Shown here piece after piece: positions 14,318-64,000 of a stretch of 64,000 nucleotides of DNA. The notes under the pieces were generated by a model. It made no database searches, was not told the DNA's origin, and saw nothing but the letters and a program-made list of their open reading frames with translations. The translations under genes were made by a program, and so were the position numbers. Where the stretch lies: contig OZ244782.1 in assembly GCA_965219625.1 (NCBI GenBank), positions 484,712 to 548,711 on the forward strand, written 5' to 3'. The stretch comes from Candidatus Multivoraceae bacterium (GTDB taxonomy: Bacteria > Acidobacteriota > Thermoanaerobaculia > Multivoradales > Multivoraceae). Positions within the stretch are counted from its first letter, which is position 1. Every line of letters begins with the position of its first letter.

Positions 14318-14330
14318 CGACGGCGCGACC

Positions 14331-46499: not shown

Positions 46500-46629
46500 C
46501 CAAAGTCCCTCCCGAGCAGCCGGACCCTACCAGCATCCGCGGCAGGCGCCGCGCCCACAAGCTGGGAGGGACGATTCGGCGGCGATGCGACCTCCGGCTG
46601 GCCGGCGTCCGTCGCCGCTGACCGACCGA

Positions 46630-46654
46630 CCCGGCCCGGGAGTGCCGGGCCGGC
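46630..46654 (-). terminator. GC-rich hairpin 8 nt downstream of the giant-gene stop (candidate intrinsic terminator, no U-tract)
   Basis: CCCGGCCCGG-GAGTG-CCGGGCCGGC, a 9/10-bp stem immediately after the stop codon at 46663-46665. Confidence 0.3.
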
Positions 46655-46662
46655 GGTCTTCG

Positions 46663-49600
46663 TCAACGTTCGAGCCGCCCCCTCGCCGGCGGTTCGCTGC
46701 AGGCGGCGATTCGCGTGAGCTGGATCTCGTCGAACCACGCGTCGCCCTGGTTGTCCCCGTCCCGCGCGGCGCGGATCCGCACACCGCCGACGGAGGCGGG
46801 TATGCACTTCGTCACCGCCCGGCATTCCCACGCTCCGACGGAGCTGGCCACGACGTGCGCGTCCTCGAACGAAGCGTCACGGCCACGACCGTCGTCGAAG
46901 TCGACGAACACGTTGTCGCCCGCGTGCTCGCGCAGCACGCAGGCCGACAACTCGTAGACGCCGCCCTCAACCGGAATCCACTCCGCGGCGACCGCGGAAT
47001 CCGAACCCACGTCGCCGCCGGACACGGCGCCGCGAAGCAACAGGCCCCAGGAACCCGAGTCGGCCGAATCGGCCGAGGAACCCGGCCCGGCAGGCGAACG
47101 CGCAACGACCGCGTCTCCCGAATCCGACGTCCAACCTGGCGCCGCGGACATCCTCACCTCGCCGCCCTCCAACTCGGAAGCAACGTCGTCCAGGCCGCCG
47201 TTCACCACCGCCGTCTTCGGCCAGCCCGGAGAGAACGGATCGAACCACGGCGAACTCGGACGATAGGACGGCACAGGCACGAGCGACTCCTCAACCGCCC
47301 ACCACTCCGCAACTTCCCCCGGACCGGACGCCGAGCGACGCGAATACACCGCGCCACGGCCACGAGCCAGGTAGAACTCGTCGTACGCCTCCGCCCTGCT
47401 CGCATCCGCCCAGAAGCGGACCTCCAGCACGTCCTCGAACGTCAGACCGCCAACCACCGGCGCCGTGAACGACGCGTGGTGAGCGACGACCTCCAGGCGC
47501 ATCGTCGTAGCAAGAGCGCCCGCCTCGTTCCGCAGACGGTTCGACAGGTAACGACCGGTCACCGAACTCTCCAACACGTCGCCTACCGCCATGTAGCGGT
47601 TCATCCACCGGAACGGCCTGTCGAGCGACACGCTCAGGCGATCCGAAGACCCGCCCTCGACCGTGCCCCAGTAGTCCAAGCCGCCTTCCGTCTCCTCGAA
47701 CAGGTCGTACCGATCTCCCCCCGGAGTCCCCAAGAGCGCCATCGGACGGCCCCACAGCTCACCTCGCCAGAAGGACCGAAGCTCGTGGGAGTCCGCGGCA
47801 GGCCACAACCGACCGTCGACCAGGCGGCTCCGCACCCCCGAAGCGCTCCCGTGAGGCGACAGCCAGTACTCGAACATGTCGAACAGGTCGCCCGACGTCG
47901 TCGAGGGCTCGGACGAATCGGATGGCTCCACCAGCCCGGGATCCACTCCGCCGGCACGCGACGACGCGGCGGCCGAACCGACGGCCCCCTCGGACACCTC
48001 GATCGTGAACGTAAGCGTCGCCGAGTTCCCGTTCCCGTCCGACGCCGTGTACGTGTACGCCGTCTCCGCCTGAACCGCCGTCGGCGTACCGGACAACGTC
48101 CGCGTCGACGCGGAGAAACTCACGCCCGCCGGAAGGCCAGGCGTCACCGCGTAACTCAACGCGCCGCCCGTACCGGTCGCCGCCGGCAAGACGACGGACC
48201 CAACCGCCTCGTCCCTCACCCATGTCTGCGCCGCGATCGTCTCGTCCCCGAACGACGGGTCCTCCACCGCGATCGTCACGCTTCCCGTCGACTCGCCGAA
48301 CCACGCCACGCCGTCATGCACCATCTTCCACTCGAACGCATGCGGGCCTACCGTCGACGGCGCCGTGATCTCCAACGTGAAGTCCACCGTCTCTCCCGGC
48401 CCGACGCTTGCCGACACGTCCGCGTCGTCCGCGCTCGCCGGCAGCTCCACACGGTTCAAACCCCACGTCACGTTGTCTTGAGGGTTCTCTGAGCCCAGCC
48501 GGTACCCCTCGGCTTCCGTCCACGTCGTCGTCCCCACATTCTTCATCGTCACCGTCACCGACGCCGTCGAACCCGCCGCCATCTTCGAAGGCACACCGGA
48601 CGTCGACACGAAGGACGCATCGTCCACCAGGACCGCCTCTACCGTCATGCTGAACGTCAACGACGCCGAATCCCCGCCCGCGTCCGTCGCCGTGTACACG
48701 TACGCCGTCGTCGCCATCGCGTCCGTCGGCGTACCGGAGATCGTCCGCGTCGACGCGGAGAAACTCAAACCCGCCGGCAGTGCAGGAGAGAGCGAGTAGC
48801 TCAACGCACCGCCCCTACCGCTTGCCGCCGGCAAAACGACCGCCTCGATTGCCTCATCCTGCACATACGTCGCGTCCGCGATCGTCTGATCACCGAACGA
48901 CGGGTCCTCCACCTCGATCGTCACGCTCCCCGTCGGCTCGCCGAACCACGCCACGCCGTCATGCACCATCCGCCACGCAAACGCGCGCGCGCCGACCGTC
49001 GACGGCGCCGTGATCGTAAACGTAAAGTCCACCGTCGCGTTCGGCACAACGCTCACAGGACCGTCCGCGCTGACCGGCAGATGCGCCCGATTCGTACCCC
49101 ACGTCACGTTGTCCTGAGAATCCTGCGAGCCCAGGCGATACAACTTCGCCTCCGTCCACGTCGTCGTCCCCACATTCTTCATCGTCACCGTCACCGACGC
49201 CGTCGAACCCGCAACCATCTTCCCCGGCACACCCGACCAAGAGACGAACGATGCGTCGTCCACGGGAAACGCCGCCACCCTGATGCTGAACGTCAACGAC
49301 GTCGAATTCCCGGCCCCGTCCGTCGCCGTGTACGTGTACGCCGTCGCCGCTTGAACCACCGTCGGCGTCCCGGACAACGTCCGCGTCGACTCCGTAAACG
49401 TCAGCCCCGCTGGCAGCGGAGGAGTCACCGCGTAACTCAACGCACCGCCCGAACCGCTCGCCGCAGGCAACACGACCGGCTCGATCGGAACGTCCTTCAC
49501 ATACGTCTGGTCGATGATCGTCTGATCACCGAACGATGGGTCCTCCACCTCGATCATCACGCTGCCCGTCGACGAGCCGAACCACGCCACGCCGTCGCGA

Positions 49601-52600
49601 ACCATCCGCCACTCGAACGCATGCGGGCCTACCGTCGACGGCGCCGTGATCTCGAACCTGAACTCCACCGTACCCTTCGGAGGCACGATCACCGGAGCGT
49701 CAACGCTCCCCGGCAGATGCGCCCGATTCGTCCCCCACGTCGTGTTGTCTCGAACGCTCTCCGAACCCAGACGATAAAGCCCCGCCTCGGCCCACGTCGT
49801 CGTCCCCACATTCTCCATCGTCACCGTCACCGTCGCCGTCGAACCCACTGCCATCTTCGAAGGAACCCCGGACGTCGACACGAACGAAGCGTCGTCCACC
49901 GGAATCACCTCCACCTCGATCGCCCCCCCGCTCGGCGTCGACGAGCCGAACCATGCCACGCCGTCACGAACCATCTGCCACACGAAACCGTAGCTCCCAG
50001 CCGCCGACGGCGCCGTGATCGTGAACGTGAACTCCGCCGTCGTGTTCGGCGCCACCTCGCCAGGCAACGGCACCCGGTTCAAACCCCACGTCAGGTTGTC
50101 CTGATTGCCTTGCGAACCCAAGGAGTACCGATCCGACGACCGCCACGTCGTCGTACCCACATTCTCCATCCGCACCGTCACCGACGCCGTCGTACCCGCC
50201 GCCATCTTCGACGGAACCCCAGACGTCGACACGAACAACGCGTCGTCCGCCGACACCGACGCGACCCGAATGTGAAACGCAAGCGACGCCGAGTTCCCGG
50301 CCCCGTCCGTCGCCGTGTACGTGTACTCCGTCTCAGGCATCGTCGCCGTCGGCGTCCCCGACACCGTACGCGTCGACTCCGTGAAACTCACACCCGCCGG
50401 CAGGGCAGGAACGAGCGAGTAGCTCAACGCTCCGCCCGTACCGCTCGCCGCAGGCAACACGACCGGCTCGATCGGAACGTCCTTCACCCACGTCTGGTCG
50501 ACGATCGTCGCGTCGCCGAACGACGGGTCTTCCACCTCGATCGTCACGCTACCCGTCGACGAGCCGAACCACGCGACGCCGTCGCGGACCATCTGCCACT
50601 CGAAAGCTCGACTGCCCGTCGTCGACGGCGCCGTCATCGCCAACGTGAAGTCCACCGTCGTGTTCGGAGGCACGCTGACGGAACGGCCGGGAGCCTTCGG
50701 GTCCGCTGGCAGAGACACCCGATTCACACCCCAGGTCAGATTGTCCTGAACGTTCTGCGAACCCAGGCGATAGGAACCCGTCTCGCTCCACGTCGTCGTC
50801 CCCGCATTCTCCATCGTTACCGTCACCGCGAACGTCGAACCCGCAGCCACCTTCGAAGGTACCCCCGACCAAGACACGAACGAAGCGCCGTCACGAGACA
50901 CCGCCTCCACCGTGATGTGGAACGTCAACGACGCCGAATTCCCCTTCCCGTCCGTCGCCGTGTACGTGTACTCCGTCTTCGGCATCGTCGCCGAAGGAGT
51001 CCCCGACACCGTCCGCGTCGACTCCGTGAAACTCACTCCCGGCGGCAGAACAGGAACGAGCGAGTAGCTCAACGCTCCGCCCGTACCCCTCGCCGCAGGC
51101 AACACGACCGGCTCGATCGGAACGTCCTTCACCCACGTCTGGTCGACGATCGTCGCGTCACCGAACGACGGGTCCTCCACCGCGATCGTCACGCGACCCG
51201 TCGACAAGCCGAACCACGAAACGCCGTCGCGCACCATCTGCCACTCGAAACCGTAGCTACCCACGACCGCCGGCGCCGTGATACCGAACGTGAAGTCAAC
51301 CGTCGCACCCGGAGCCACCTCGCCGGGCAACGGCGCACGATTCCGACCCCACCTCACGTTGTCCTGCGGATCCTGCGAACCCAGACGGTACTCGCCCGAA
51401 GGCGTCCACGTCGTCGTCCCCTCGTTCTTCATCCGCACCGTCACCAAAGACGTCGTACCGGCAACCATCTTCCCAGGCACACCAGACCACGAAACGAACG
51501 ACGCATCGTCCTCCAACGACGCAACGACTTCGATCGTGAACGTGAGCGACGCGGACGAACCAACCCCGTCCGTCGCCGTGTACGTGTACTCCACCGCGTC
51601 CTGCAACTCCGTCGGCGTCCCTGACACCGTACGCGTCGACTCCGAGAAACTCACCCCCGTCGGCAACGCAGGCGTCAGCGAGTAGCTCAAAGCCCCGCCC
51701 GTGCCGCTCGCCGAAGGCAACACGACCGGCTCAAGGGGCACGTCCTTCACCAGCGTTTGATCCGGAATCGTCCAGTCGCCGAACGACGGGTCTTCCACCT
51801 CGATCGTCACGCTACCCGTCGACGAGCCGAACCACGCGACGCCGTCGCGGACCATCTGCCACTCGAAAGCTCGACTGCCCGTCGTCGACGGCGCCGTCAT
51901 CGCCAACGTGAAGTCCACCGTCGTGTTCGGAGGCACGCTGACGGAACGGCCGGGAGCCTTCGGGTCCGCTGGCAGAGACACCCGATTCACACCCCAGGTC
52001 AGATTGTCCTGAACGTTCTGCGAACCCAGGCGATAGGAACCCGTCTCGCTCCACGTCGTCGTCCCCGCATTCTCCATCGTCACCGTCACCGCGAACGTCG
52101 AACCCGCAGCCACCTTCGAAGGTACCCCCGACCAAGACACGAACGAAGCGCCGTCACGAGACACCGCCTCCACCGTGATGTGGAACGTCAACGACGCCGA
52201 ATTCCCGGCCCCGTCCGTCGCCGTGTACGTGTACTCCGTCTTCGGCATCGTCGCCGAAGGAGTCCCCGACACCGTCCGCGTCGACTCGGAGAAACTCACC
52301 CCCGTCGGCAGAGCAGGCGTCAGCGAATAGCCCAACGCTCCGCCCGTACCCCTCGCCGCAGGCAACACGACCGGCTCGATCGGAACGTCCTTCACCCACG
52401 TCTGGTCGACGATCGTCGCGTCACCGAACGACGGGTCCTCCACCGCGATCGTCACGCGACCCGTCGACAAGCCGAACCACGAAACGCCGTCGCGCACCAT
52501 CTGCCACTCGAAACCGTAGCTACCCACGACCGCCGGCGCCGTGATACCGAACGTGAAGTCAACCGTCGCACCCGGAGCCACCTCGCCGGGCAACGGCGCA

Positions 52601-55600
52601 CGATTCCGACCCCACCTCACGTTGTCCTGCGGATCCTGCGAACCCAGACGGTACTCGCCCGAAGGCGTCCACGTCGTCGTCCCCTCGTTCTTCATCCGCA
52701 CCGTCACCAAAGACGTCGTACCGGCAACCATCTTCCCAGGCACACCAGACCACGAAACGAACGACGCGTCGTCCACAACGAACGCCGCCACCTCAAGCGA
52801 AAACGGAAGCTCAGCCGCGTCACCGTCACGGTCCGTCGACATGTACGTGTACCCCGTCTCCGGCTGAACCTCCGTCGGCGTGCCAGAAAGCACCCGCGTC
52901 AAGCCGTCGAACTCCAAACCCGAAGGCAGCGACTCGACAACCTCGTACGTCAGCTCCCCGTTCCCGCCAACCGCCGCCGGCAGCGTCACCGGAACCATCG
53001 GCTCGTTCAGGGTGAGGAACTGCGGAACGATCGTCTGAACCCCGAACTCCGGCGCCGAGTCCTCCTCCACCGCGATCAACAACGGGAGCGAATCCTCGTC
53101 TCCGTCACGGTCCCCAACCGTGTACGCATACTCCGTCGCCGGCTGAACCGCCGTCGGCGTGCCGGAAAGCACTCGCGTCGCGGCCTCGAACTCCAAACCC
53201 GAAGGCAGCGACTCGACGATCGCGTACGTCAGCTCCCCGTTCCCGGCGACCGCGGACGGCAGCGTCACCGGCGACATCGGCTTGTTCAGGCTGAGGAACA
53301 GCGGATCGATCATCGTGACCTCGAACCCAGGAGCGGAGTCCCCTTCCACCTCGATGCTGACGACAAGCGACGCCTCGTCGCTGTCGCGGTCCGTCGCCGC
53401 GAACGTGTAGTCCGTCGCCGGCTGGGCCGTCGTCGGCAGGCCGGAGAGACCGCACGGCGGGGTCGGGTCGAGCGTCACACCCGCCGGCAACGCGGGAGAC
53501 TCCGGCGCCACGGAACATGTCACGTCCGCATTCCCGCCCGTCACGCCGAGGCTCAGGTCGACCGACGTCCTGCCTTCCGTCCACACGACCGGACTCTCGA
53601 CCGCGCCGAACGTCGGCGTCGTGTCCGGTTCCACCTCGATCGTCAACAGGAGCCAATCCTCGTCACCATCGCGGTCCGCAACCGTGTACGTGTAAGGCGT
53701 CTCCGGCTGCACCGCCGTCGGCGTGCCGGAAAGCGCCCGCGTCGTAGCCTCGAAGGCCAAACCCGAAGGCAGCGACTCGACGATCGCGTACGCCAGCTCC
53801 CCGTTCCCGGCGACGGCCGACGGCAGCGTCACCGGCGACATCGGCTTGTCCTGGCTCAGGATCAGCGGAGCGATCGACTCGTCTTCGAACCCAGGAGCGG
53901 AGTCCCCTTCCACCTCGATGCTGACGACAAGCGACGCCTCGTCGCCGTCGCGGTCCGTCGCCGCGAACGTGTAGTCCGTCGCCGGCTGGGCCGTCGTCGG
54001 CAGGCCGGAGAGACCGCACGGCGGGGTCGGGTCGAGCGTCACACCCGCCGGCAACGCGGGAGACTCCGGAGTCACGGAACATGTCACGTCCGCATTCCCG
54101 CCCGTCACGCCAAGGCTCAGGTCGACCGACGTCCTGCCTTCCGTCCACACGAGCGGACTCTCGACCGCGCCGAACGTCGGCGTCGTGTCCGGCTCCACCT
54201 CGATGCTGACGACGAGCGTCGCCGTGTCCCCGTCGTAGTCCGTCGCCGTGAACGTGTAGTCCTCCGCCCCTTGAACCGCCGTCGGCGTACCCGAGAGAAT
54301 GCACGGAGCGGTCGGCTCGAGCGTCACGCCCGAGGGCAGCGCGGGAGACTCCGACGTCAACGTGCATGTCGGCCCGAAATTGCCGTCCTCCAGGCCGAGA
54401 CTCACCTCGACCGGTCGGTTCTCCGTCCAGACCTGACTCCCGACCTGCCCGAACACCGGAGACGTGTCCGGCACGACGCCGATCGTGAACTCCCGCGAAG
54501 CAACGTCACCGTCGTCGTCCGTTGCCGTCCACGTGTACGTCCTCGGCGCCTGCGGCGCCGTCGGAACACCCGAAATCACCCGGCCCGACCGGGACATCCC
54601 AGCCGGCAGAACGGCGGAGAGACTGTACGTCAACGGCTGGTTCCCGCCCGTCGCCGCCGGCAGCGTCATCGAGCCCGGATAACCGACGATCCACGTCCGC
54701 GAGGGGAACCACTCCAGGACCGGCGTCTTGTCTTCCAAGACCGTCACGGTCACCGTCGCGGATTGGTAAACCTCGGGGCCGGCCAGCGTGATCAACCATA
54801 TGCCGGCCTCGTGGCCATATGCCGGCCTCGTGGCCGCTCACCGACACCTGCTGCGGCGAAGAGTAGTTCGATGCGTCGAAGTCCAGGCTGGAGGGACTCG
54901 CCGACACCTTCGAGATGTCCTCCTCGGTCACCGTCACCGTAGCGCCACCCGTGGACGGCGGCTCTGACAGGGACGCTCCGAAGGTCACCGACTCCCCCTC
55001 GATCACGGTCAAGTACAGAGGTTCCGGCGGACCGAGATCATCCAAACGAATCGTACCTAAATCAATGTACGGGCGCGGTTGGTCGACCACCGTTACGTCC
55101 ACCGTCACTGTCGAGTCGCACCCGCCGCCGATTGAAGTCAGGGTGACCGAGGTCTGCTCGTCGTTCCGGTCGTCGTCCCACACACCTTCCAGCGTAATCT
55201 GCTGCGCGGCCGCACTCGTGAATTGGAGGGGCGAATCGGAGGCGTTCTTCAGCTTGACCGCGCCCAGATCGTTGATTACGACGGGCACATTTACCCGGCC
55301 TGTCGGCGTCCTGGACAGCGAGACGGTCAAGTCGGCTTCGCCGCCTTCGACCAAGACCAGCGGATTCGGCGACACGACCAGACTGCACGGCGGCCCGACC
55401 GTGATGTCGAACGTCACGACGCCCGCGTCGGTCGGGGCCGTGTTGCCGTCCGCGTCCGTCGCCGTGAACGTGTACGCCGCCGTGTCCTCATCCGCAGACG
55501 GCGTCCCCGACACCGTGCATGACGAAGCGTCCAGCGACACCCCTGCCGGCAATGCCGGCGCGTTCGAGCAGGTCACATCTCCATTGCCGCCCGTCACCCC

Positions 55601-56272
55601 GAGGTCCAGATCGACAGCCACACCCGTCGTCCAGTCCTGATCCGCGATGCTCCCGAACGTCGGCACCGTGTCCGTACCCACCCAGATCGTCCGGGCCGAC
55701 GTCGAGTCGCCGAACGGCGTCGAGCCGACGAAACCGGAAACCGCGGGCGAGGACGCAACAACAGGTCCCGGATTCGGGCCCGGGTTCGTCTCGGTGATCC
55801 TGCGCATGCGAAACTGAAAGCTGTAGCTCCCAGCGGTCGAAGGCGCCGTGATCGTGAACGTGAAGTCGTGGACGGCGTCCGGCGCCACGGTGCCGAAGAC
55901 CGGCACGCCGGCCACTGTCGACCCGCTGTCGAGACCCCAGGTATCGCCGACCCAAAACAACGTAAAGAACGTCACTGTGTTCGGGAGGAACCGAGTCGAC
56001 CAGCTCTGCGTCCCCGTGTTCTTCATGCGGACCGTCACTGTCCTCGTCTCGCCGGGCGACATGAACTCCGACGCGGACGGCAAGCCGGTCCAGGACACGA
56101 ACTCCGCATCGTCGGCGCCCATCGCTGGCGACACCATGAAGCCGAGCGCCAGACAAGCCGCCGCGACCGCCACAAGCCGAGTCCCACCGTGGTGCTGCAT
56201 CGTTCTGCTCCCGCTCATCATCCGCCTCCTCGCGTCTGATTCACTACCGCTCATCCGAACCGTCCTCTTCAA
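46663..56272 (-). CDS. giant secreted cell-surface repeat protein (~3,200 aa): signal peptide, FW domains alternating with CADG/He_PIG Ig-like domains, CBM4/9-like C-terminus; frameshifted here by a 19-bp tandem duplication
   Basis: ORFs 54506-56272 and 46663-54795 fuse in frame (…SVSGHEAGIW|LITLAGPEVYQ…) when one copy of the 19-bp repeat at 54797-54834 is removed. N-terminal signal peptide (MKRTVRMSGSES…LALGFMVSPAMGA). At least 20 repeats of the LPxGxxFxxxTRxxSGTPTxxQxxTxYTYTATDxxGxxAS type (dystroglycan-type cadherin-like). Repeats with four or five conserved Trp residues (ASFVSWSGVP…NxGTTTW…YRLGSQ…WG…FEWQMVRDGVxWFG) match the FW/NBR1-like domain. The C-terminus ends …GDAWFDEIQL, like CBM4/9 modules. 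Confidence 0.8.
50512..53037. repeat. two tandem near-identical 1,263-bp (421-aa) units inside the giant gene; each unit encodes FW-CADG-FW-CADG
   Basis: Shadow ORFs 50549-50872/51812-52135, 50891-51136/52154-52399 and 51296-51490/52559-52753 are pairwise near-identical with a constant 1,263-bp offset. The encoded protein shows two ~421-aa blocks that are almost identical. Unit boundaries are approximate. Confidence 0.7.
54797..54834. repeat. perfect 19-bp tandem duplication (CATATGCCGGCCTCGTGGC x2) inside the giant gene, causing a +19 frameshift
   Basis: Units at 54797-54815 and 54816-54834 are identical. Deleting one unit restores a single reading frame across 46663-56272. Confidence 0.9.
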
Positions 56273-58320
56273 CTACGCCCAGCCCGCCAGCCGGCGCACC
56301 GACTTCGCCCGACCGCGCCTCGCACACCTCCGAAAACGCGGTCACGTCGACCACCGCGGCAGACGGTTTGCCGGCCTCCCGTCTGTATCTCTTGGACTCA
56401 TACGTCTCCAGGTCCAAGACACCGAGAGAGAGCCGCAGGTCCGTCGCCGAGGCCGCGAGCACCCAATGGTGACCGTTCACCGCACAGCCGTCCAGCACCT
56501 TGACGAGCACCTCCCAATTCTCCGGGCCGAAGAAGTAGACGATGCCCGACTCGTCCGTGCCTACAGAGGCTACCCTCGCGCCTATACGCTCCCCCGTCTC
56601 TGACCAGTAGTCCACCCAGACCGAGTAACGACGATTCCGGAGACACAGCCTCGTTTCCGTCGGCACGCACGGGCCGACCGCCTCCTCCGCCACAACAGAA
56701 ACCGGCGCCTCGGCCGCCGCCGACCAGCCGCTCCCATCCGACAACGAAGCAGCAGCGGCGGCAGACGCCGCCCCAGCCTCCGAGCCGTCGCAGGCCCTCG
56801 GAAACGCGTTCACGTCGACGATCGCCGGCGCCGGAGACCCCGGCTCGTTCTCGTACGCGCGGAACGCACCCGTCGCCGTGTCCGTTACCCGAATCCGGTA
56901 CCCGAGGTCCGTCGTCGACGCCCCGAGCACCCACACCCGGCCGTTCACCGAACAACCGTCGAGCACCTTGATCAAGACCTCCCAGTTCTCAGGGTCAAAG
57001 AAAGACAGCAACCCCGAGTCGTTCGTACCCACGGGAACGACCGCCGCCCGCCCCGAATCCCCGTCCAGGCTCCACCACTCCGCCGTCACCTCGAAACGGG
57101 AATCCCGAAGGCAACGCGTCTCCCCGTCCGCAGCGCACGTCCCCGCCGGAGACGCCGCCTCGACGAACACCGTCCGCGAAGCGGATGACGAATCCGAACC
57201 GTCGCTAAACGTCAGAACCACTTCATAGAACCCCGGGGAGGACCAGGAGTGGACCGGCGACTCCAGCCGAGACGTCGTCCCATCGCCGAAGTCCCACGTC
57301 CGCTCCGTCGCTGAAGCGTCGCTCGTATCGACGAACGTGACCGGTTCGCCCGTCACCGTGCGGCAGAGCTCCGCCCCCGCACAAGGCGCACCGAAGTCGA
57401 ACGAAGGCGCAGGAATCGCAACCGTACGCGCACGCACCGTCGCCGGCGGACCGGCGCCGCGCCCCGTCCACGCCCGCACCTGGAACGCGTACTCCCTACC
57501 CGGGTCGAGCCCCGTCGCCCGGTAGCTCCCGGATTCGTTCGGCACCGTCTTCCAGCGGTCCTCCGCAACGTCGAACGGAAGCTCCCGCGCCGGCTTCCAA
57601 CGAACCTCCTGCCGGCCTGCCGTAATCGGCGATTCCACTTCCCATGTCAGATCGACCGCCACGCTCAAGGCCGACGCCGAAAGACCAACGATCTTCGGCG
57701 GCGGAGGGCGCCAGGAACTCCGAGAGTAGCCGCGATCGTTGAACGCGAACACGCGGAACATCTTCCCCGCAGGCACGACGGCCGTCTCCACGTCCGCGGA
57801 CACGACCAGCGCCCTCCTCCAGATTTCGGCGCCATTGCTGACCTGGACTTCAAAGCCCGTCTCGTCGTCCGAGTTGTCGCGCCAGCGAAGCCGCACTGTG
57901 TCACCGAGCCGCTCTTCCGTAACGCCCGACGGCGCCTCAGGCCCGAAACCCCGCGAACCCAGCGTCAGCCGGCCGTATGAAGCTGAACTGCTCTTGCCGG
58001 GGCGATGGGCGACGGCGGTGAACACATAGCGGCCGCCGCGCGCCAAGTTCTCGAAGTCCACCCGACCGCGACCCTCGGCGACCTGAACCGAATCGCCCCA
58101 CCCCTCCAAACTCGCGAAAACCGAGTGAGACTCGGCCTCTGCGTCGGGCGCCCAGGAAACCCGTGCCGTCGTCGGACCGGCGGCGGTCACCGCAAAGCCC
58201 GCGACGCCGAGCGCGGCGTCTTCATCGCCCGAAGGCAACGTCACGACATCGCTGCTCTCGGATTCGCCCCACTTGTTCCACGCGACCACCTGCACGCCGT
58301 ACTCCGCGTTCGCGTCACGC
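56135..58320. repeat. segmental duplication, copy A (3' ~2.2 kb of the metalloprotease gene plus the first 138 nt of the giant gene)
   Basis: Near-identical to 60440-62587 at a 4,305-bp offset (identical shadow ORFs 56398-56955 / 60703-61260). Identity is 100% over the 3' ~1.3 kb and decays toward the 5' side. Confidence 0.85.
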
Positions 58321-60134
58321 CCAGGCACGAAGCCGAAGAACCGAAAGGACTCGCTGTTCGCCGGCGCCTCTCTCCTGAAGACCACCTCGCCGGCCCGCAG
58401 GAGGCGCACATCGAAGCCCGTTTCATTGTCCGAATTGTCCCGCCAACGGACATCCAAGCTGTTCGGCGGGAACGTCACCGAAACGTCCGAAGGCGCCGCA
58501 ATCGGATCGCCAGGCAACCAGATTCCAGCCCAGTCGCTCCACAGCGACCGAGCCGAGCCGACCAACGAACGCACCCGGAAGTGGTAGATGCCAGGAAGGT
58601 CTCCTCCCCCGAAAGACCACTCCGCCTCCGTCCGCCCCTCAGCGCGCCGGATGTCCTGCCACCCCGTCAGCCTGTTCACGCGCTCCACCTCGTAGCCGTC
58701 CCCGTCCGCGGCGCTGTCTTCCCAGCTCAAGCGAGCCGACGAACCGTCCCGTTGCAACCGAACTCCGGTCGGCTGAGCCGGGATGTCCGCCGGCGGCAAG
58801 TAATCGCTGTACCGCACGCCGACGTGGACCGTCTCCCGCAGCAAACGCTCGTTGTCCCGCTCGCCTTCGATCCCCAACACCGCCCCGTACAAACGAAGCC
58901 GCGGCGTCGAGTAGAACGGCTCGGTCTGGCCGCTCAGGCTCATCGCCGTACCCAAGGCCGGCATCGCGTCGTAATCCACATGGCCATATGCATACGGCCA
59001 CCGGCTCGGCGCCCGCCAACCTGGCGGTTGGTGGCCAGCGCCCAGACCGTGGCCCACCTCGTGGACGAACGTCGCAGCGTAGTCACCGCCGCACGCCGAC
59101 GGGTGGTTCGACGTATAGCCGCGGGCATAGGGAGAGAAGCTCTCCGCCGTAAAGAAGGGGCGCAACCATCCGTGTAAACCGCAGCCCGCCACCCCCGGCA
59201 GCGACCCACTCTCCCCTGTAAACAGGTGCACCAGGTCCGCCCGATGCTCGTGACGTAACCGCTGGAGCTCCCCGTCCCAGACGATCAGGTCGATCAGGCC
59301 GATTCCCGCGTCCAACTCCGGCCTGCTCAGATCCCGCCCCGCACGGTCCAGCGTCGACGAAGCCTCGACGACGTGCACGATGCGGGGCGTCACCTCAAGG
59401 CCGTTGTTCCGGAACACGAGCGATAAGTAATCGGCCGCGTGCTGGATCGCAATCTCCGCTCCGCCGATGGGCGCCCAGTACTTCGCAGCCTCCTTCGTGT
59501 ACGCGACGAGGATGTCCAGGTAATCGTGATCGCGGTGGCTCTGATGGCTCGCCGTCCCGCGCGGCGCATCCGCGCCGCGGCCAGCCGCATTCGCACGGCT
59601 CTCCGCCCCGACGCCCGCCGCGGCCTCCTCCTCTTGCTCCACACCGCACCACGGCTCCCCTTGACCCGGCCCGGCCCCGCCCAAGGGCGACATCCCGCCA
59701 AGGCCGTCCGAAGCCGAATGGATCCGATACGCACCGCCCCCAGGAGCCCCGAAACGCCCGATCAGCCGCCCTTCGTGAATCGTCAGGACGACCGTGTCGT
59801 ACCCGGCCTCGCGGTTCCCCCCGAACCAGACCCCATCCCCGTTTCCCCGGTCCTCGAAGGCGGAACGTTCGGCGTAGATCACATCACCGTCCGGCGTCGG
59901 CGCCTCGAGAACCAGGGGAGCGCTACGAAGAAGATCCAAGTCCGCCTGAATCGCAGTCACCGGCGCCGGACCCATCGATCCCCCGCCCTCCACGGACGAC
60001 GCTTCCGCCACGGAAGGCAAGAGCGTCAGCAAACGCTGAGCCTCCACCGGCAACGCCGCCAGCCAGACGAACACCACGGCGAACGGCAGAGCCGCGAGCC
60101 GGCGAACAGCGGGCAGGGGGCGCGGATTGGACAT
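56244..60134 (-). CDS. secreted reprolysin-like zinc metalloprotease with Fn3 repeats, a PKD domain and twinned C-terminal domains of unknown family (paralog A)
   Basis: Signal peptide (MSNPRPLPAVRRLAALPFAVVFVWLAALPVEAQ; ATG at 60134 preferred over the GTG at 60158). HEVGHGLGAGHQ with the Met-turn AMSLSG. Fn3 repeats. PKD (WDFGDGTTS…GFYEVVLTFSDG). Two C-terminal ~115-aa repeats (CLRDSRFEV…SFFDPENWEVLIKVLDGCSVNGRVW…; CLRNRRYSV…YFFGPENWEVLVKVLDGCAVNGHHW…). The stop overlaps the giant-gene start by 29 nt. Confidence 0.8.
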   Translation of the reverse strand: MSNPRPLPAVRRLAALPFAVVFVWLAALPVEAQRLLTLLPSVAEASSVEGGGSMGPAPVTAIQADLDLLRSAPLVLEAPTPDGDVIYAERSAFEDRGNGDGVWFGGNREAGYDTVVLTIHEGRLIGRFGAPGGGAYRIHSASDGLGGMSPLGGAGPGQGEPWCGVEQEEEAAAGVGAESRANAAGRGADAPRGTASHQSHRDHDYLDILVAYTKEAAKYWAPIGGAEIAIQHAADYLSLVFRNNGLEVTPRIVHVVEASSTLDRAGRDLSRPELDAGIGLIDLIVWDGELQRLRHEHRADLVHLFTGESGSLPGVAGCGLHGWLRPFFTAESFSPYARGYTSNHPSACGGDYAATFVHEVGHGLGAGHQPPGWRAPSRWPYAYGHVDYDAMPALGTAMSLSGQTEPFYSTPRLRLYGAVLGIEGERDNERLLRETVHVGVRYSDYLPPADIPAQPTGVRLQRDGSSARLSWEDSAADGDGYEVERVNRLTGWQDIRRAEGRTEAEWSFGGGDLPGIYHFRVRSLVGSARSLWSDWAGIWLPGDPIAAPSDVSVTFPPNSLDVRWRDNSDNETGFDVRLLRAGEVVFRREAPANSESFRFFGFVPGRDANAEYGVQVVAWNKWGESESSDVVTLPSGDEDAALGVAGFAVTAAGPTTARVSWAPDAEAESHSVFASLEGWGDSVQVAEGRGRVDFENLARGGRYVFTAVAHRPGKSSSASYGRLTLGSRGFGPEAPSGVTEERLGDTVRLRWRDNSDDETGFEVQVSNGAEIWRRALVVSADVETAVVPAGKMFRVFAFNDRGYSRSSWRPPPPKIVGLSASALSVAVDLTWEVESPITAGRQEVRWKPARELPFDVAEDRWKTVPNESGSYRATGLDPGREYAFQVRAWTGRGAGPPATVRARTVAIPAPSFDFGAPCAGAELCRTVTGEPVTFVDTSDASATERTWDFGDGTTSRLESPVHSWSSPGFYEVVLTFSDGSDSSSASRTVFVEAASPAGTCAADGETRCLRDSRFEVTAEWWSLDGDSGRAAVVPVGTNDSGLLSFFDPENWEVLIKVLDGCSVNGRVWVLGASTTDLGYRIRVTDTATGAFRAYENEPGSPAPAIVDVNAFPRACDGSEAGAASAAAAASLSDGSGWSAAAEAPVSVVAEEAVGPCVPTETRLCLRNRRYSVWVDYWSETGERIGARVASVGTDESGIVYFFGPENWEVLVKVLDGCAVNGHHWVLAASATDLRLSLGVLDLETYESKRYRREAGKPSAAVVDVTAFSEVCEARSGEVGAPAGGLGVVEEDGSDER

Positions 60135-60301
60135 TTCGACTGAAAACCACCTTAGCACCCCTGCACGCCTTTCCCCACAGGAGCTGCGAGAAACCGCCGA
60201 CAGCCATGCCTGTCAAGCTCGTGGCGACGGCGCTGCCCGTTACGGAAGCGCTCGCAAACCTCCCGGCCCGCCACCAGGGGCACCAGCCAGTTGCCGGCGT
60301 T

Positions 60302-60577
60302 CTATTCCCTCTCCCACGTGGTCGTTCCCGTGTTCGACGCGACGACCGTCACCGTCGCCGACCCGCCGGGAGCGATGAAGTCCGGAAGAACGGGTTCCGT
60401 CACGATCGCCGCATTGTCTGCGCCGCGGACGGCCGTCGACATGAAGCCGAGCGCCAGACAAGCCGCCGCGACCGCCACAAGCCGAGTCCCACCGTGGTGC
60501 TGCATCGTTCTGCTCCCGCTCATCATCCGCCTCCTCGCGTCTGATTCACTACCGCTCATCCGAACCGTCCTCTTCAA
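60302..60577 (-). pseudogene. truncated remnant of the giant gene's 5' end (signal peptide + partial FW domain, 91 aa) created by the segmental duplication
   Basis: The first 46 codons are identical to the giant gene start (MKRTVRMSGSES…LALGFM). It then diverges (…ASNTGTTTWERE*) and stops. It overlaps the upstream paralog B stop by 29 nt, like the parental arrangement. Confidence 0.6.
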
Positions 60578-62587
60578 CTACGCCCAGCCCGCCAGCCGGC
60601 GCACCGACTTCGCCCGACCGCGCCTCGCACACCTCCGAAAACGCGGTCACGTCGACCACCGCGGCAGACGGTTTGCCGGCCTCCCGTCTGTATCTCTTGG
60701 ACTCATACGTCTCCAGGTCCAAGACACCGAGAGAGAGCCGCAGGTCCGTCGCCGAGGCCGCGAGCACCCAATGGTGACCGTTCACCGCACAGCCGTCCAG
60801 CACCTTGACGAGCACCTCCCAATTCTCCGGGCCGAAGAAGTAGACGATGCCCGACTCGTCCGTGCCTACAGAGGCTACCCTCGCGCCTATACGCTCCCCC
60901 GTCTCTGACCAGTAGTCCACCCAGACCGAGTAACGACGATTCCGGAGACACAGCCTCGTTTCCGTCGGCACGCACGGGCCGACCGCCTCCTCCGCCACAA
61001 CAGAAACCGGCGCCTCGGCCGCCGCCGACCAGCCGCTCCCATCCGACAACGAAGCAGCAGCGGCGGCAGACGCCGCCCCAGCCTCCGAGCCGTCGCAGGC
61101 CCTCGGAAACGCGTTCACGTCGACGATCGCCGGCGCCGGAGACCCCGGCTCGTTCTCGTACGCGCGGAACGCACCCGTCGCCGTGTCCGTTACCCGAATC
61201 CGGTACCCGAGGTCCGTCGTCGACGCCCCGAGCACCCACACCCGGCCGTTCACCGAACAACCGTCGAGCACCTTGATCAAGACTTCCCAGTTCTCAGGGC
61301 CGAAGAAAGACAGCAGGCCGGAATCGTTCGTACCCACGGGAACGACCGCCGCCCGCCCCGAATCCCCGTCCAGGCTCCACCACTCCGCCGTCACCTCGAA
61401 CCGGGAGTCCCGAAGGCAACGCGTCTCCCCGTCCGCAGCGCACGTCCCCGCCGGAGACGCCGCCTCGACGAACACCGTCCGCGAAGCGGATGACGAACCC
61501 GAACCGTCGCTCACCGTCAAGACGACCTCGTAGAAACCCGGCGTAGACCACGAGTGGACCGGAGACCGCAAACGTGACGTCGTCCCGTCGCCGAAGTCCC
61601 ACGTCCACTCCCTCGCCGAGGAATCGCTCTCGTCGACGAATGTCACCGGCTCGCCCGTCACCGTGCGGCAGAGCTCGGAACCCGCGCACGGCGCCCCGAA
61701 GTCGAACGACGCCGCGGGAATCGAGGCTGTCCGCGCACGGACCGTCACCGGCGGGCCGGCGCCCCGCAACGTCCACGCCCGCACCTGGAACGCGTACTCC
61801 CTACCCGGGTCGAGCCCCGTCGCCCGATAGCTCCCGGATTTGTTCGGCACCGTCTTCCAGCGGTCCTCCGCAACGTCGAACGGAAGCTCCCGCGCCGGCT
61901 TCCAACGAACCTCCTGCCGGCCTGCCGTAATCAGCGATTCCACTTCCCATGTCAGATCGACCGCCACGCTCAAGGCCGACGCCGAAAGACCAACGATCTT
62001 CGGCGGCGGAGGACGCCAGGAACTCCGAGAGTAGCCGCGATCGTTGAACGCGAAGACGCGGAACATCTTCCCCGCAGGCACGACGGCCGTCTCCACGTCC
62101 GCGGACACGACCAGCGCCCTCCTCCAGATTTCGGCGCCATTGCTGACCTGGACTTCAAAGCCCGTCTCGTCGTCCGAGTTGTCGCGCCAGCGAAGCCGCA
62201 CTGTGTCCCCGAGCCGCTCTACCGTAACGCCCGACGGCGCCTCAGGCCCGAAACCCCGCGAACCCAGCGTCAGCCGGCTGTATGAGGCTAAACTACTGCT
62301 GCCGGAGCGGTGGGCGGAAATCGAAAACACATAGCGGCCTCCGCGCGCCAGGTTCTCGAAGTCCACCCGACCGCGACCCTCGCCAACCCGAACCGAATCG
62401 GAGGACCACCCGTCCAAACTCGGCCGAACCCAGTGATAGTCGGCCTCTGCGTCAGGCACCCAGGAAACCCGCGCCGTCGTCGGACCGACGGCCGTCACCG
62501 TCAAGCTCGCGACGCCGGGCAAGACCTCCGCATCGCCCGTAGGCAACGTCACGACATCGCTGCTCTTGGATTCGCCCCACTTGTTCC
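60440..62587. repeat. segmental duplication, copy B
   Basis: See copy A. Copy B continues for ~48 bp after the IS insertion (63929-63976), then diverges from copy A. Confidence 0.85.
60549..62587 (-). pseudogene. reprolysin-like metalloprotease paralog B, 3' portion; interrupted by an ISL3 insertion
   Basis: C-terminal 430 aa are 100% identical to paralog A. The PKD and Fn3 regions are progressively divergent. The reading frame runs into the IS at 62588. Homologous sequence resumes after the IS at 63929 and continues past the window end. Confidence 0.75.
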
Positions 62588-63927
62588 GGGTCTTCAGGCT
62601 GTTGTGTGGGGAGCGCGCCACGCGGTTAGTCGCCGGTGACCCATAGACTGGCGGGATGAAGAGTGCGAGGACGTTCGAGAGGCTGTTGGGGATCAAGCCG
62701 CCTTGGCGGGTGCGGGAGGTGGTGCTCCGTATGGACGAGCCGCATCCGCGACGTCGCGGCGCGGTGGTTGGCGGCACGGTGGAGATTCACGTCGAGCATC
62801 GTGGGGAGACCCGCTGCCCCGAGTGCGGCGAGCGGTGTCCGGGCTACGACAGCAGACACCGCAGGTGGCGGCATTTGGACACGATGCAGCACCAGACGCG
62901 TGTCCACGCGGAGGTGCCTCGGGTGCGCTGCGTCGAGCATGGCGTACTCCAGTTGAAGGTGCCTTGGGCGGACGAGGGTTCTCGTTTCACGGCGCTGTTC
63001 GAGGCAGAGGCCATCGGCTGGCTTCGTGACGCGAGCGTTCAGGCGGTGGCGCGACGCATGGGTCTGAGCTGGGATCAGGCGGCGGGGATTCAGCGCCGGG
63101 CAGTGGATCGCGGCCTTTCGCGGCGCCGGTTGCGGCCGCCGCGGCTGCTGGGCGTGGACGAGACGGCGTTTCGGAGGCGACACGAGTACGTGACGGTGGT
63201 CAACGACCTGGAGCGAGGCGTGGTGGCCCATGTGGCCGACGGTCGCGGCCGGTCGGCCATCGACGGCTACTTCGAGGGTCTGGGCGAGACGACCTGCGCG
63301 GGCATCGAGCAGGTGGCGATGGACATGTGGCCGGCGTACATCTCTTCGGTGAAGGCGTACACGAACGCGGTGATCGTGCACGACCGGTTCCACATCGTCG
63401 CGCACCTGAACCACGCCGTGGACCTGGTTCGGCGCGCCGAGCAGCGGGAGTTGCTTGAGGCAGGCGATCCGCGTCTGAAGCGAAGCCGCTACCTGTGGTT
63501 GATGGGGAAGGGCCGCATGAACCGCTCGCAGCGGCGACGTTTCGCTGCTCTTCGCACGAGTCACCTTCGCGTGGCTCGGGCCTGGGCGATCAAGGAGATG
63601 GCGCGGGACTCGTGGGGCTATGCGAGCCGCGGTTGGGCAGAGCGGCGCTGGAAGCGCTGGTACGGCTGGGCGGTCCGCAGCCGTTTGGCGCCGATCAAGC
63701 AAGTGGCCAAGATGATCAGGGATCACTGGGAGGCCGTCATCAACGCCGCCGTGTCCAGCATCTCCAGCGCCAGCGCCGAGGGCATCAACGCGAGGATCCA
63801 GGAGATCAAGCGAAGAGCGCACGGCTAGCGAAACCGAGAGCACTTCCGCCTCGCCATCTACTTCCATCTCGGCGGACTCGATTTGACTCCCGATTCACTG
63901 CAAGCCCACACACAACCCTGAAGCGCC
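62588..63927 (+). mobile_element. ISL3-family insertion sequence (1,340 bp) with imperfect ~24-bp terminal inverted repeats and an 8-bp target-site duplication CTTGTTCC
   Basis: IRL is GGGTCTTCAGGCTGTTGTGTGGGG (62588-62611). The reverse complement of IRR is GGCGCTTCAGGGTTGTGTGTGGGC (63904-63927). Direct repeats CTTGTTCC sit at 62580-62587 and 63928-63935. Flanking sequence is contiguous with paralog A's homologous site. Confidence 0.85.
62656..63828 (+). CDS. ISL3-family transposase
   Basis: 390 aa. N-terminal zinc-finger (CPECGERCPGYDSRHRRWRHLD) and the LGVDETAFRRRH…DMWPAY…HDRFHIVAHLNHAVD core, which are typical of ISL3 transposases. Confidence 0.9.
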   Translation: MKSARTFERLLGIKPPWRVREVVLRMDEPHPRRRGAVVGGTVEIHVEHRGETRCPECGERCPGYDSRHRRWRHLDTMQHQTRVHAEVPRVRCVEHGVLQLKVPWADEGSRFTALFEAEAIGWLRDASVQAVARRMGLSWDQAAGIQRRAVDRGLSRRRLRPPRLLGVDETAFRRRHEYVTVVNDLERGVVAHVADGRGRSAIDGYFEGLGETTCAGIEQVAMDMWPAYISSVKAYTNAVIVHDRFHIVAHLNHAVDLVRRAEQRELLEAGDPRLKRSRYLWLMGKGRMNRSQRRRFAALRTSHLRVARAWAIKEMARDSWGYASRGWAERRWKRWYGWAVRSRLAPIKQVAKMIRDHWEAVINAAVSSISSASAEGINARIQEIKRRAHG

Positions 63928-64000
63928 CTTGTTCCACGCGACCACCTGCACGCCGTACTCCGCGTTCGCGTCACGCTCGCGCGCGGAGACGTCTAACCGA

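Follow-up and report, generated by a model that had tools for sequence, protein, structure and literature searches.

Gene content of the locus

The window (the whole 64,000-nt stretch of contig OZ244782.1, from a Candidatus Multivoraceae bacterium, that was analyzed) carries two tandem gene pairs, each with a metzincin-type protease gene followed by all or part of a gene for a giant protein built of FW and He_PIG repeats. All genes of both pairs lie on the minus strand. Protease paralog A (56244–60134) comprises 1296 aa when read from ATG 60134; its longest open reading frame (ORF) starts at GTG 60158, and the N-terminus fits the family consensus from the methionine at 60134. The protein is ordered as a Sec signal peptide, a conserved N-terminal domain, a metzincin catalytic domain, fn3 repeats, a PKD domain and two copies of a C-terminal module (CTD). 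Copy 1 of the CTD (aa 1000–1115; 56790–57137) is all-beta with conserved cysteines, and copy 2 (aa 1156–1271; 56322–56669) is 48% identical to it. The catalytic domain contains the zinc-binding motif HEVGHGLGAGH (aa 358–368; 59031–59063) and, 27 residues past it, the conserved segment GTAMS (58938–58952), a candidate Met-turn whose methionine, M398, is nearly invariant (at least 90%) in A1.

Scores of protease A against reprolysin models of Pfam exceed the gathering scores marginally (Reprolysin_5, 27.8 versus 27.0 bits; Reprolysin_3, 25.9 versus 22.4 bits); relatives, and the further window paralog C, score higher. Together with the signal peptide and the zinc motif, these matches bear out the secreted zinc metalloprotease-like protein proposed by the first-pass annotation of this DNA. 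Of 47 family members, 44 retain the HExxHxxGxxH motif, which, along with the conserved GTAMS segment, favors a catalytically active enzyme as the predicted product. The residue following the third histidine is Q in protease A, leaving no adamalysin HD signature, and D or E in most relatives. Searching the PDB by sequence with the N-terminal and catalytic part yielded only matches to ADAM33 and MMPs with E values of 0.04–0.3, the best being to ADAM33 (E = 0.039). The NCBIfam model Mep72 (NF052434) was matched partially (E = 7e-10), and membership was rejected because 38.1 bits were reached against an equivalog cut-off of 645. Paralog C (6466–10266, minus strand), 39% identical to A, is an orphan: no giant gene follows it, and an amidohydrolase gene adjoins it.

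The CTD has no Pfam model and is found in roughly 9200 protein clusters. Besides the metzincins, it occurs in subtilases, M23 peptidases and VWA, beta-helix, sortilin/BNR and EEP-nuclease proteins. Its presence on such varied exported enzymes marks a general exported-enzyme set.

The giant gene behind protease A is interrupted by a frameshift. Its 5' segment (54815–56221, minus strand) starts at ATG 56221 or 56218 and encodes a signal peptide, MMSGSRTMQHHGGTRLVAVAAACLALGFMVSPAMG, then the first FW (N_BRCA1_IG-like) domain and a He_PIG domain. The reading frame holds as far as a perfect 19-bp tandem duplication (54796–54833), read directly from the sequence, in which CCACGAGGCCGGCATATGG occurs twice on the minus strand and shifts the giant frame. 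With one copy removed, the two ORFs join as a protein of 3178 aa. The 3' segment (46663–54795, minus strand; 2710 codons) consists of repeat units of about 620–645 bp with 14 He_PIG and 8 FW matches, and ends in roughly 415 C-terminal aa that match no family. Both repeat families score above the Pfam gathering threshold, He_PIG with 387.6 bits over 14 stretches and N_BRCA1_IG with 195.4 bits over 8. A structure model of the C-terminal 415 aa has an overall pLDDT of 54.6, with values of 70–83 confined to the last 120 residues or so. These residues gave weak fold matches to CBM16, CBM61, CBM22 and CBM70 (TM 0.5–0.6 on the target), a modeled likeness that weakly suggests a CBM-like beta-sandwich at the C-terminal end.

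Neither the giant nor the protease showed a T9SS Por or PEP-CTERM tail, whether whole proteins were searched against NCBIfam (E ≤ 0.01) or C-terminal regions against Pfam (E ≤ 10). No RTX family was matched on the giant, which has a conserved N-terminal Sec-type signal peptide instead. A lipobox was considered and rejected, the AAAC of the signal peptide not being conserved in relatives. Searches of the giant revealed nothing recognisable as an anchor to the cell surface, so the label "adhesin" attached to it earlier is not established.

Duplication and decay of the second cassette

The second pair lies directly upstream of the first. An 844-bp tract at 56135–56978, spanning the 3' end of the protease gene, the spacer and the start of the giant gene (the first 84–87 nt, counted from ATG 56218 or 56221), is 100% identical to 60440–61283. 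The remainder of the duplicated region, to 58279 and 62587, respectively, is a mosaic of 81–99% identity. The identical tract indicates that the two cassettes are homogenised by gene conversion.

Protease paralog B is present in two pieces. The 3' part (60549–62587, minus strand) encodes fn3, PKD and two CTDs and has no catalytic domain; the continuation (63928–64000, minus strand), whose bases 63928–63976 are identical to 58272–58320 of paralog A, runs off the end of the window. Between them, at the site equivalent to 58272–58279 of paralog A, sits a 1340-bp insertion sequence of the ISL3 family (62588–63927, plus strand), with a transposase gene at 62656–63828 on the plus strand that matches DDE_Tnp_ISL3 (E = 4.8e-68), HTH_Tnp_ISL3 and Zn_ribbon_ISL3. 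The element is bounded by terminal inverted repeats at approximately 62588–62610 and 63905–63927 (62592–62610 and 63905–63923 are 84% complementary) and by an 8-bp target duplication, CTTGTTCC, at 62580–62587 and 63928–63935. Because the element splits the gene, the part of protease B visible in the window lacks a protease domain.

After protease B comes a giant-gene stub of 74 codons (60302–60526, minus strand) with the same Shine-Dalgarno (SD) sequence, ATG ATG and signal peptide as the giant behind protease A. It extends through part of the first FW domain to a stop, and is conserved as 73 aa in the closest relative, at the orthologous locus L109. A unique 167-nt spacer (60135–60301, minus strand) separates the stub from protease A. 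This spacer is more than 95% conserved at L109, and no homologue of it was found elsewhere in the window, among related loci L001–L038 or upstream of protease B in L109. A simple tandem duplication that took in the protease upstream region is therefore not supported as the origin of the stub.

Both window cassettes are damaged: protease B is split by the ISL3 element, its giant is reduced to the 74-codon stub, and the giant behind protease A is frameshifted by the 19-bp duplication. The giant at L109 is disrupted as well, and because of the damage to all three giants the window locus may be non-functional.

Start of the giant gene

A 29-nt overlap between protease A and the giant gene had been described, and translational coupling through it proposed. 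The positions given for it are accurate. Protease A ends at TAG 56246–56244 and the longest ORF of the next gene opens at TTG 56272, a formal overlap of 29 nt; a second stop/TTG pair occurs at 60549–60551 and 60577. TTG 56272 is only the first start-type codon to follow an upstream stop, the GC content of the window being about 67%, and it has no SD. Downstream of the protease stop, in an intergenic spacer at 56222–56243 (minus strand), AGGAGG at 56230–56225 precedes two consecutive ATG codons at 56221 and 56218, 22–25 nt past the stop. Clear genes of the window use GGAGG with a spacer of 5–8 nt (GlnA, 26822; a 7TM-HD gene, 30715; a TPR gene, 46499). The two ATGs stand 34 and 33 residues ahead of a conserved G-x-D-N/D-A-x-F/W-V motif, a position at which about 20 related loci have the conserved N-terminal methionine of their signal peptide.

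Related junctions lead to the same start. Measured from the protease stop, the longest-ORF start ranges from −610 to +116 nt over 22 of them and the two window junctions; among the 22 relatives, 11 have an overlap with the stop, its length as varied as −14, −20, −125, −169, −190 and −610. Whatever the longest-ORF start, the conserved methionine lies downstream of the protease stop at every tabulated junction, with a gap of 34–180 nt in the relatives, and an overlap is not a conserved feature of these loci. At seven loci (L004, L007, L008, L015, L016, L024 and L030) in-frame stops lie between the protease stop and the conserved methionine, which makes an overlapping start impossible there. At L109, 25 nt separate the called genes at each of the two junctions.

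As read from these sequences, the protease and giant genes do not overlap, and the giant is predicted to begin at ATG 56221 or 56218 behind its own AGGAGG. The 29-nt overlap is a product of reading the longest open frame. A genuine overlap that couples translation, whether of 29 nt or of 11 nt from ATG 56254, is highly improbable. Its attractions are that the ORF is open from TTG 56272, that ATG 56254 has a weak GAGGA-N8 upstream and that L109 has an in-frame GTG where the window has TTG; against these, the conserved methionine and SD sit downstream of both candidate starts, the extension upstream of the methionine lacks conservation and runs into stops in seven relatives, and the gene caller placed the L109 start 25 nt past the protease stop. 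ATG 56254 is an unlikely start in its own right because the residues that it would add are not conserved. Translational coupling through the 29-nt overlap is not supported: the real start of the giant falls downstream of 56272, the outcome that the first-pass annotation itself had named as removing the overlap. Nor is the overlap "preserved" at paralog B in any informative sense; that junction lies within the 844-bp tract of 100% identity and so does not count as independent evidence.

From the shared strand and the short gap (22–180 nt) we infer that protease and giant are co-transcribed, and each cassette gene would be translated from its own ribosome-binding site. A scan of 46000–64000 detected no sigma-70-type promoter, and terminator-like sites occurred at background frequency. 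In some relatives (L015, L011 and L004) the spacer contains a strong hairpin, which might reduce read-through.

Conservation of the cassette in relatives

The closest homologues all come from metagenome-assembled genomes (MAGs) of Thermoanaerobaculia or "Candidatus Multivorans", and MAGs are all that is known of this cassette-bearing group of Acidobacteriota. Among 36 protease-anchored loci from such genomes, 27 have a giant homologue directly downstream, on the same strand, of one to four tandem metzincin genes. Scanning metagenomes from the other side, with the N-terminus of the giant, recovered mostly generic FW/He_PIG proteins without proteases; the protease CTD was found just upstream in all four true N-terminal orthologues. 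The pairing of protease and giant noted in the first-pass annotation, seen in the window as a FW/He_PIG gene on the same strand 22–25 nt downstream of protease A, is thus upheld by the conserved-neighborhood search that the annotation had suggested, and is not an accident of one lineage. Distances between proteases co-vary with those between the adjacent giants (Mantel r = 0.78, 0 of 5000 permutations). The cassette giants are predicted Sec-exported proteins of 2000–3200 aa in which FW (NBR1-like Ig) and He_PIG domains alternate ahead of a family-specific end region, and the cassette proteases carry one or two CTD copies.

Cassettes are present four to six times per genome (six loci in CBDCRA01, four each in OY762911 and JAJEHN01). 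L109, which was reached through P0135, a cluster mate of the closest homologue P0001, repeats the protease-stub-protease-giant layout of the window. Another locus, L038 (68% local identity), is not syntenic; what stands there is a giant C-terminus and, after it, the remnant of a deleted protease. Relatives frequently have split giants. Cassettes are inherited and duplicated as units, and they decay. To the earlier proposal of a protease-adhesin module duplicated as a unit, the corrections are that in the window protease B is split, both giants are damaged and the adhesin function is not established.

Linkage without any functional tie, in which segmental duplication and gene conversion simply copy both genes together, is very unlikely to account for the arrangement. 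Duplication, conversion and decay are clear in the 844-bp identical tract, the 81–99% mosaic, the IS insertion, the stub and the frameshifts, and the frequent splitting of giants in relatives also fits such an account. Neutral linkage would, however, be expected to break more often than is seen: order and strand are kept across lineages and several MAG groups whose proteins are down to approximately 42–50% identical, and the spacers are short (22–180 nt).

Predicted function of the cassette

We read the locus, with a probability of roughly 0.6, as a clade-typical cassette of two non-overlapping genes, here in two tandem copies, that encodes degradative metzincins co-expressed with a giant binding protein rather than a dedicated maturation protease. 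Both products would be exported. The giant would be a platform that binds or adheres to a substrate rich in protein or glycans, presumably matrix of a host or of particles, and the metzincins would degrade the substrate that the giant binds. A binding role for the giant is suggested by its He_PIG and FW Ig-like repeats, by the eukaryotic FW domain being a protein-recognition module (PMC9233695) and by the CBM-like sandwich at the C-terminal end. A degradative role for the proteases is favored because orphan proteases exist, because up to four proteases precede one giant and because the CTD is common to the general exported-enzyme set. The strictly conserved adjacency and the co-varying distances would be just as compatible with a specific interaction between protease and giant.

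One such interaction would have the metzincin cut its neighbor to mature or shed it. Giant repetitive surface proteins that are genetically associated with a protease are familiar from the LapA/LapG system (with LapD) of Pseudomonas and relatives, in which the periplasmic cysteine protease LapG cleaves the LapA adhesin, a type I secretion substrate that has no Sec signal peptide. By analogy, a protease genetically tied to a giant repeat protein possibly controls it. An adjacency kept over 40–50% sequence divergence with constant order and strand, the co-varying distances, and Sec signal peptides on both products, which would bring them together outside the cytoplasm, all accord with this logic. 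Orphan family members with no giant nearby (L001, L003, L012, L025, L031 and window paralog C) do not, and arrays of two to four proteases per giant, with up to four in tandem at L005, are unexpected for a single maturation step. Moreover, the proteases have fn3, PKD and CTD binding modules of their own, and the CTD is common to unrelated exported enzymes. The systems also differ in composition. The cassette enzyme is a metzincin (searches of the protease against Pfam and NCBIfam found only metzincin, fn3 and PKD families and no LapG-type cysteine protease), the giant, with its classical Sec signal peptide, matched no RTX family, no LapD-like gene belongs to the cassette, and one to four proteases accompany a giant while others stand alone. 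We consider a dedicated processing or release protease unlikely. Of the two roles offered for the protease in the first-pass annotation, orphans, tandem arrays and the widely shared CTD thus make processing or maturation the less likely and favor the co-displayed degradative enzyme.

A second form of interaction would be an extracellular complex in which the giant is a scaffold that docks the metzincins, and perhaps other CTD enzymes, through their C-terminal beta-domains. Cellulosome clusters, which combine genes for enzymes and a scaffoldin, provide the analogy: a huge protein of repeated Ig-like modules is encoded beside several paralogous exported hydrolases with a C-terminal module in common. 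The many Ig-like units on one giant (8 FW and 14 He_PIG matches), paired with one to four proteases, would suit a scaffold, as would the protein binding of eukaryotic FW domains (PMC9233695) and the other CTD-bearing proteins encoded directly upstream of cassettes at L011, L022 and L031. The distribution of the parts argues otherwise. The CTD occurs in some 9200 clusters, whereas close homologues of the giant N-terminus were found only beside proteases of this family; a giant partner of this kind is therefore probably missing for most proteins with a CTD. Unlike cellulosomes, the cassettes encode proteases rather than glycoside hydrolases and have no cohesin or dockerin domains. Docked, cellulosome-like proteolysis is rather improbable. 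Similarly doubtful is its most far-reaching version, in which the scaffold captures host-matrix or particulate substrate while holding one to four CTD-docked metzincins, and amplification and diversification to four to six cassettes per genome would be a main adaptation of these Acidobacteriota to animal tissue.

Among known systems, two other sets of metzincins come close to the cassette. Reprolysin/adamalysin enzymes (Reprolysin_3, _4 and _5; ADAM and ADAMTS) resemble the cassette proteases in HExxHxxGxxH(D), the Met segment and ancillary domains of adhesion type. The ancillary domains of the cassette enzymes, in contrast, are fn3, PKD and the novel CTD instead of disintegrin or TSP, the adhesive partner is encoded by a giant gene of its own, and the Pfam scores of protease A barely exceed threshold. 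The Mep72-BamI operon of Pseudomonas aeruginosa pairs a secreted metzincin with a co-transcribed downstream partner, much as the metzincin here lies directly upstream of a co-oriented partner gene; the partner in the cassette is a giant repeat protein and not a small inhibitor.

The source organisms may be host-associated, to judge by isolate names. If they are symbionts of animal tissue, as the MAG names suggest, the cassette is a candidate for binding and digesting host matrix proteins. Genes with cadherin and fn3 domains are enriched in sponge-symbiont MAGs, including those of Acidobacteriota (Robbins et al. 2021; PMC8163846), and belong to the same broad class of large adhesion-type domain proteins. 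That survey found no collagenase genes and reports domain counts, whereas a protease-giant cassette is not described in it (PMC8163846). Our literature search ("Candidatus Multivorans", He_PIG, sponge Acidobacteriota metalloproteases/cadherins) turned up no paper that describes the cassette. Taken singly, secreted proteases and large proteins of adhesion type are familiar; it is their fixed, multi-copy combination as metzincin and giant FW/He_PIG protein that we did not find described. Coupling by overlap, a longest-open-frame reading only, is without importance for this pairing, which is real and recurrent in the clade. As a defined system, the cassette would also allow tests of bacterial FW domains and of the widespread CTD of about 9200 clusters.

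Conservation and duplication of the protease-giant cassette

A search with protease A gave 168 homologues (E<=1e-3); those few with a name were labelled Acidobacteria/Acidobacteriota bacterium, and several resided on one large contig. A genome scan yielded 36 loci from Thermoanaerobaculia and 'Candidatus Multivorans' MAGs, with a few labelled Holophagales or Vicinamibacteraceae; isolate names suggest that the related MAGs are host-associated. A giant homologue lay downstream of the protease gene or genes, on the same strand, at 27 of the 36 loci, preceded by one to four tandem proteases (four in locus L005). Individual genomes carry several cassettes, with six loci in CBDCRA01 and four each in OY762911 and JAJEHN01. 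The protease-giant module and its duplication as a unit, proposed in the first-pass annotation, are confirmed and far more widespread than that annotation could tell, and the pairing is conserved among relatives. The giant was absent from nine loci, two or three of which are truncated by contig ends. Clear orphan proteases occur at L001, L003, L012, L025 and L031, and as window paralog C (6466-10266, minus strand). A reverse metagenome scan with the giant N-terminus as query recovered only four true giant orthologues (L039, L040, L041 and L051), all four with a protease or the C-terminal beta-domain of the proteases (CTD) directly upstream, along with roughly 66 generic FW/He_PIG loci without a protease. 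In a comparison of 17 cassettes, the distances separating the catalytic regions of the proteases correlated with those separating the adjacent giant N-termini (Mantel r=0.78, 0/5000 permutations), a correlation that partly reflects shared species history. Housekeeping genes encoding a TPR protein, a glycosyltransferase family 3 protein, CinA and GuaA flank the giant at its 3' side; therefore, the cassette consists of protease and giant alone.

The protease-giant junction

All relevant genes of the cassette region lie on the minus strand. At junction A, the ORF of protease A (56244-60158, 1304 aa) meets a 588-aa ORF with a TTG start (54506-56272), beyond which lies a 2710-aa ORF (46663-54795); the corresponding ORFs at the second junction are 60549-62777 (742 aa) and 60302-60577 (91 aa, TTG start). 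The minus-strand sequence of junction A is ...GAT GAG CGG TAG tgaatcagacgcg AGGAGG cgg ATG ATG AGC GGG..., where TAG (56246-56244) is the protease A stop, and an identical string recurs at 60549/60577. The TTG at 56272 shares the frame of the downstream ORF and gives a formal 29-nt overlap, previously read as translational coupling of protease and giant. That observation is mechanically correct but was misread as a gene overlap: in a window of ~67% GC, TTG 56272 is merely the first start-type codon past an upstream stop. Alignment of giant-frame translations from 22 related junctions and the two of the window revealed a signal peptide common to all (M-x-x-S-R-x-G-x-G-x-A-L-R-R-G-A-A-A-G-L-F-L-A-L-A-F-T-A-G-A-A-S-G-G-D-N-A-x-F-V-S-Y-S-G-V-P), with its Met 33-34 residues ahead of the D-N-A-x-F-V motif. 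ATG 56221 and ATG 56218 of the window lie exactly 34 and 33 residues ahead of this motif, placing the real giant start downstream of 56272.

The conserved Met is 22/25 nt past the protease stop in the window and 34-180 nt past it in relatives. In-frame stop codons intervene at seven related loci (L004, L007, L008, L015, L016, L024 and L030), where an overlapping start is therefore impossible. Longest-ORF starts scatter from -610 to +116 nt relative to the protease stop, the pattern expected of chance ORF extension. The Shine-Dalgarno (SD) sequence AGGAGG (56230-56225) sits 3 and 6 nt upstream of the two ATGs, and similar signals precede clear window genes, namely GlnA (ATG 26822, AAGGAGG-N5), a 7TM-HD gene (ATG 30715, GGAGG-N7) and a TPR gene (ATG 46499, GGAGG-N8). 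At L109, the closest relative's orthologous locus, public gene calls place both downstream starts 25 nt past the protease stops. Collectively, these data refute coupling by a 29-nt overlap. A start at ATG 56254, which has GAGGA at N8 spacing and would give an 11-nt overlap with protease A, is unlikely, as the residues gained show no conservation. Short-range termination-reinitiation across the 22-25 nt is possible and differs from the overlap claimed.

Probable gene conversion, and damage to the cassettes

The two window copies (56135-58279 and 60440-62587) align with 94.5% overall identity, distributed as a mosaic of 81-87% blocks alternating with 98-100% blocks. Their final 844 bp are identical (56135-56978 and 60440-61283), a tract that runs from the 3' end of the protease gene across the spacer and 84-87 nt into the giant gene. 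The supposedly preserved overlap at 60549/60577 falls inside this tract and is not independent evidence. Recent gene conversion best explains the tract, with an assembly artefact as the alternative; the two L109 copies, 92% identical across 4.1 kb, again suggest concerted evolution. In L109, with ~80% DNA identity to the window, a 1300-aa protease, a 73-aa stub, a 1298-aa protease and the giant follow one another in the same order; the tandem arrangement and stub thus already existed before the two genomes diverged.

The next gene after protease B is this giant remnant, a 74-codon stub (60302-60526, minus strand) arising by either deletion or partial duplication. Its sequence, ending ...TTWERE*, is conserved nearly residue for residue in L109 (13929-14150) despite the ~80% DNA identity, and the 167-nt spacer that follows (60135-60301) is >95% conserved there, yet unique. 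Stub or spacer could be more than debris, such as a small secreted peptide or a promoter region for protease A.

Both window cassettes are damaged. Protease B, whose 5' part extends past the window end, is interrupted by a 1340-bp ISL3-family insertion sequence (62588-63927) with a DDE_Tnp_ISL3 transposase, terminal inverted repeats and an 8-bp target duplication (CTTGTTCC). A 19-bp sequence (CCACGAGGCCGGCATATGG), perfectly duplicated in tandem (54833-54815 and 54814-54796, minus strand), shifts the reading frame of the giant gene, and removal of one copy joins the two ORFs to encode a 3178-aa protein. The L109 giant is likewise split, at another position, and six related giants occupy two ORFs (L011, L014, L018, L019, L020 and L024).

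Architecture of the proteases and giant

Protease A starts at ATG 60134 (minus strand), which matches the family N-terminus. A signal peptide and highly conserved N-terminal domain are followed by a catalytic domain with HEVGHGLGAGH and Pfam Reprolysin_5 and Reprolysin_3 scores slightly over threshold, bearing out the earlier description of a secreted zinc metalloprotease-like protein, here a distant reprolysin-type metzincin. Besides fn3 and PKD domains, the protein carries the CTD in two copies; this 116-aa cysteine-containing domain is without a match in Pfam or NCBIfam. Among fetched loci, HExxHxxGxxH is kept in 44 of 47 family members, mostly with D next, and a GTAMS segment is conserved; judged by these motifs, the proteases are probably active enzymes. 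As a general tail of exported proteins, the CTD occurs in ~9200 protein clusters, mostly at or near the C-terminus and often in two copies, and is joined to subtilases, M23 peptidases, VWA, beta-helix, sortilin/BNR and EEP-nuclease proteins.

The giant, a repeat protein of the He_PIG/FW type, has 14 He_PIG and 8 FW (N_BRCA1_IG) matches in units of ~620-645 bp. The FW domain is a protein-recognition module in eukaryotic Nbr1, with bacterial homologues little studied (PMC9233695). The C-terminal ~415 aa (46666-47910, minus strand) match no family, share 54-68% identity among related giants and end in a conserved R-I-A-A-C; weak modelling evidence hints that the last ~120 residues form a beta-sandwich resembling carbohydrate-binding modules. 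A stand-alone 399-aa homologue of this region (P0133, 37% identity) is encoded by a Thermoanaerobaculia MAG.

Predicted mode of action

Protease and giant genes share one strand with short spacers, both products have Sec-type signal peptides and the proteases keep their catalytic motif. We favor a model in which the genes would be co-transcribed, translation of each would begin at a separate SD and the two products would be exported, with the giant binding a protein- or glycan-rich substrate that the metzincins degrade. Its main rival, dedicated LapG-like processing of the giant by the protease, would account for their strict adjacency and co-varying distances. Binding and degradation is favored because orphan proteases exist, up to four proteases precede one giant, the proteases bear their own binding-type modules and the CTD tail is attached to varied enzymes, all of which weaken a processing role. 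Alternatively, the CTD may dock onto the giant's repeats as on a scaffold.

A strong hairpin of 15-17 bp that lacks a U-tail occupies the protease-giant spacer at L015:15670-15706 (z=-6.6), L011:15693-15737 and L004:13400-13440 and is absent from the window junction. Its stems vary in sequence between loci with pairing kept. The hairpin could be a processing, stabilizing or attenuating element, and could tune the ratio of protease to giant product.

The cassette ties exported hydrolase genes to the gene of a large binding protein. Its protease class and its export route both rule out a LapA/LapG system. Mep72 was also rejected (38 bits versus a cut-off of 645), and unlike cohesin/dockerin systems the cassette lacks cohesin and dockerin domains. 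A survey of sponge-symbiont MAGs found cadherin- and fn3-domain genes enriched and reported the absence of collagenases (PMC8163846), and does not describe the cassette; our literature search found no published description of the protease-giant pairing.

Additional observations concern gene neighborhoods. Paralog C, 39% identical to protease A, adjoins an amidohydrolase gene (with 11423-14422, minus strand), as does the L001 protease pair; this may represent a second conserved context of the family. A window gene for a BNR_2 (sialidase-like) repeat protein (22723-24165, minus strand) may bear on a host-glycan-degrading lifestyle. In one 'Ca. Multivorans' genome, the neighbor of an orphan protease is a bAvd gene lying between FGE-sulfatase-domain genes (L002:15283-18133), an arrangement that usually marks the target region of a diversity-generating retroelement.
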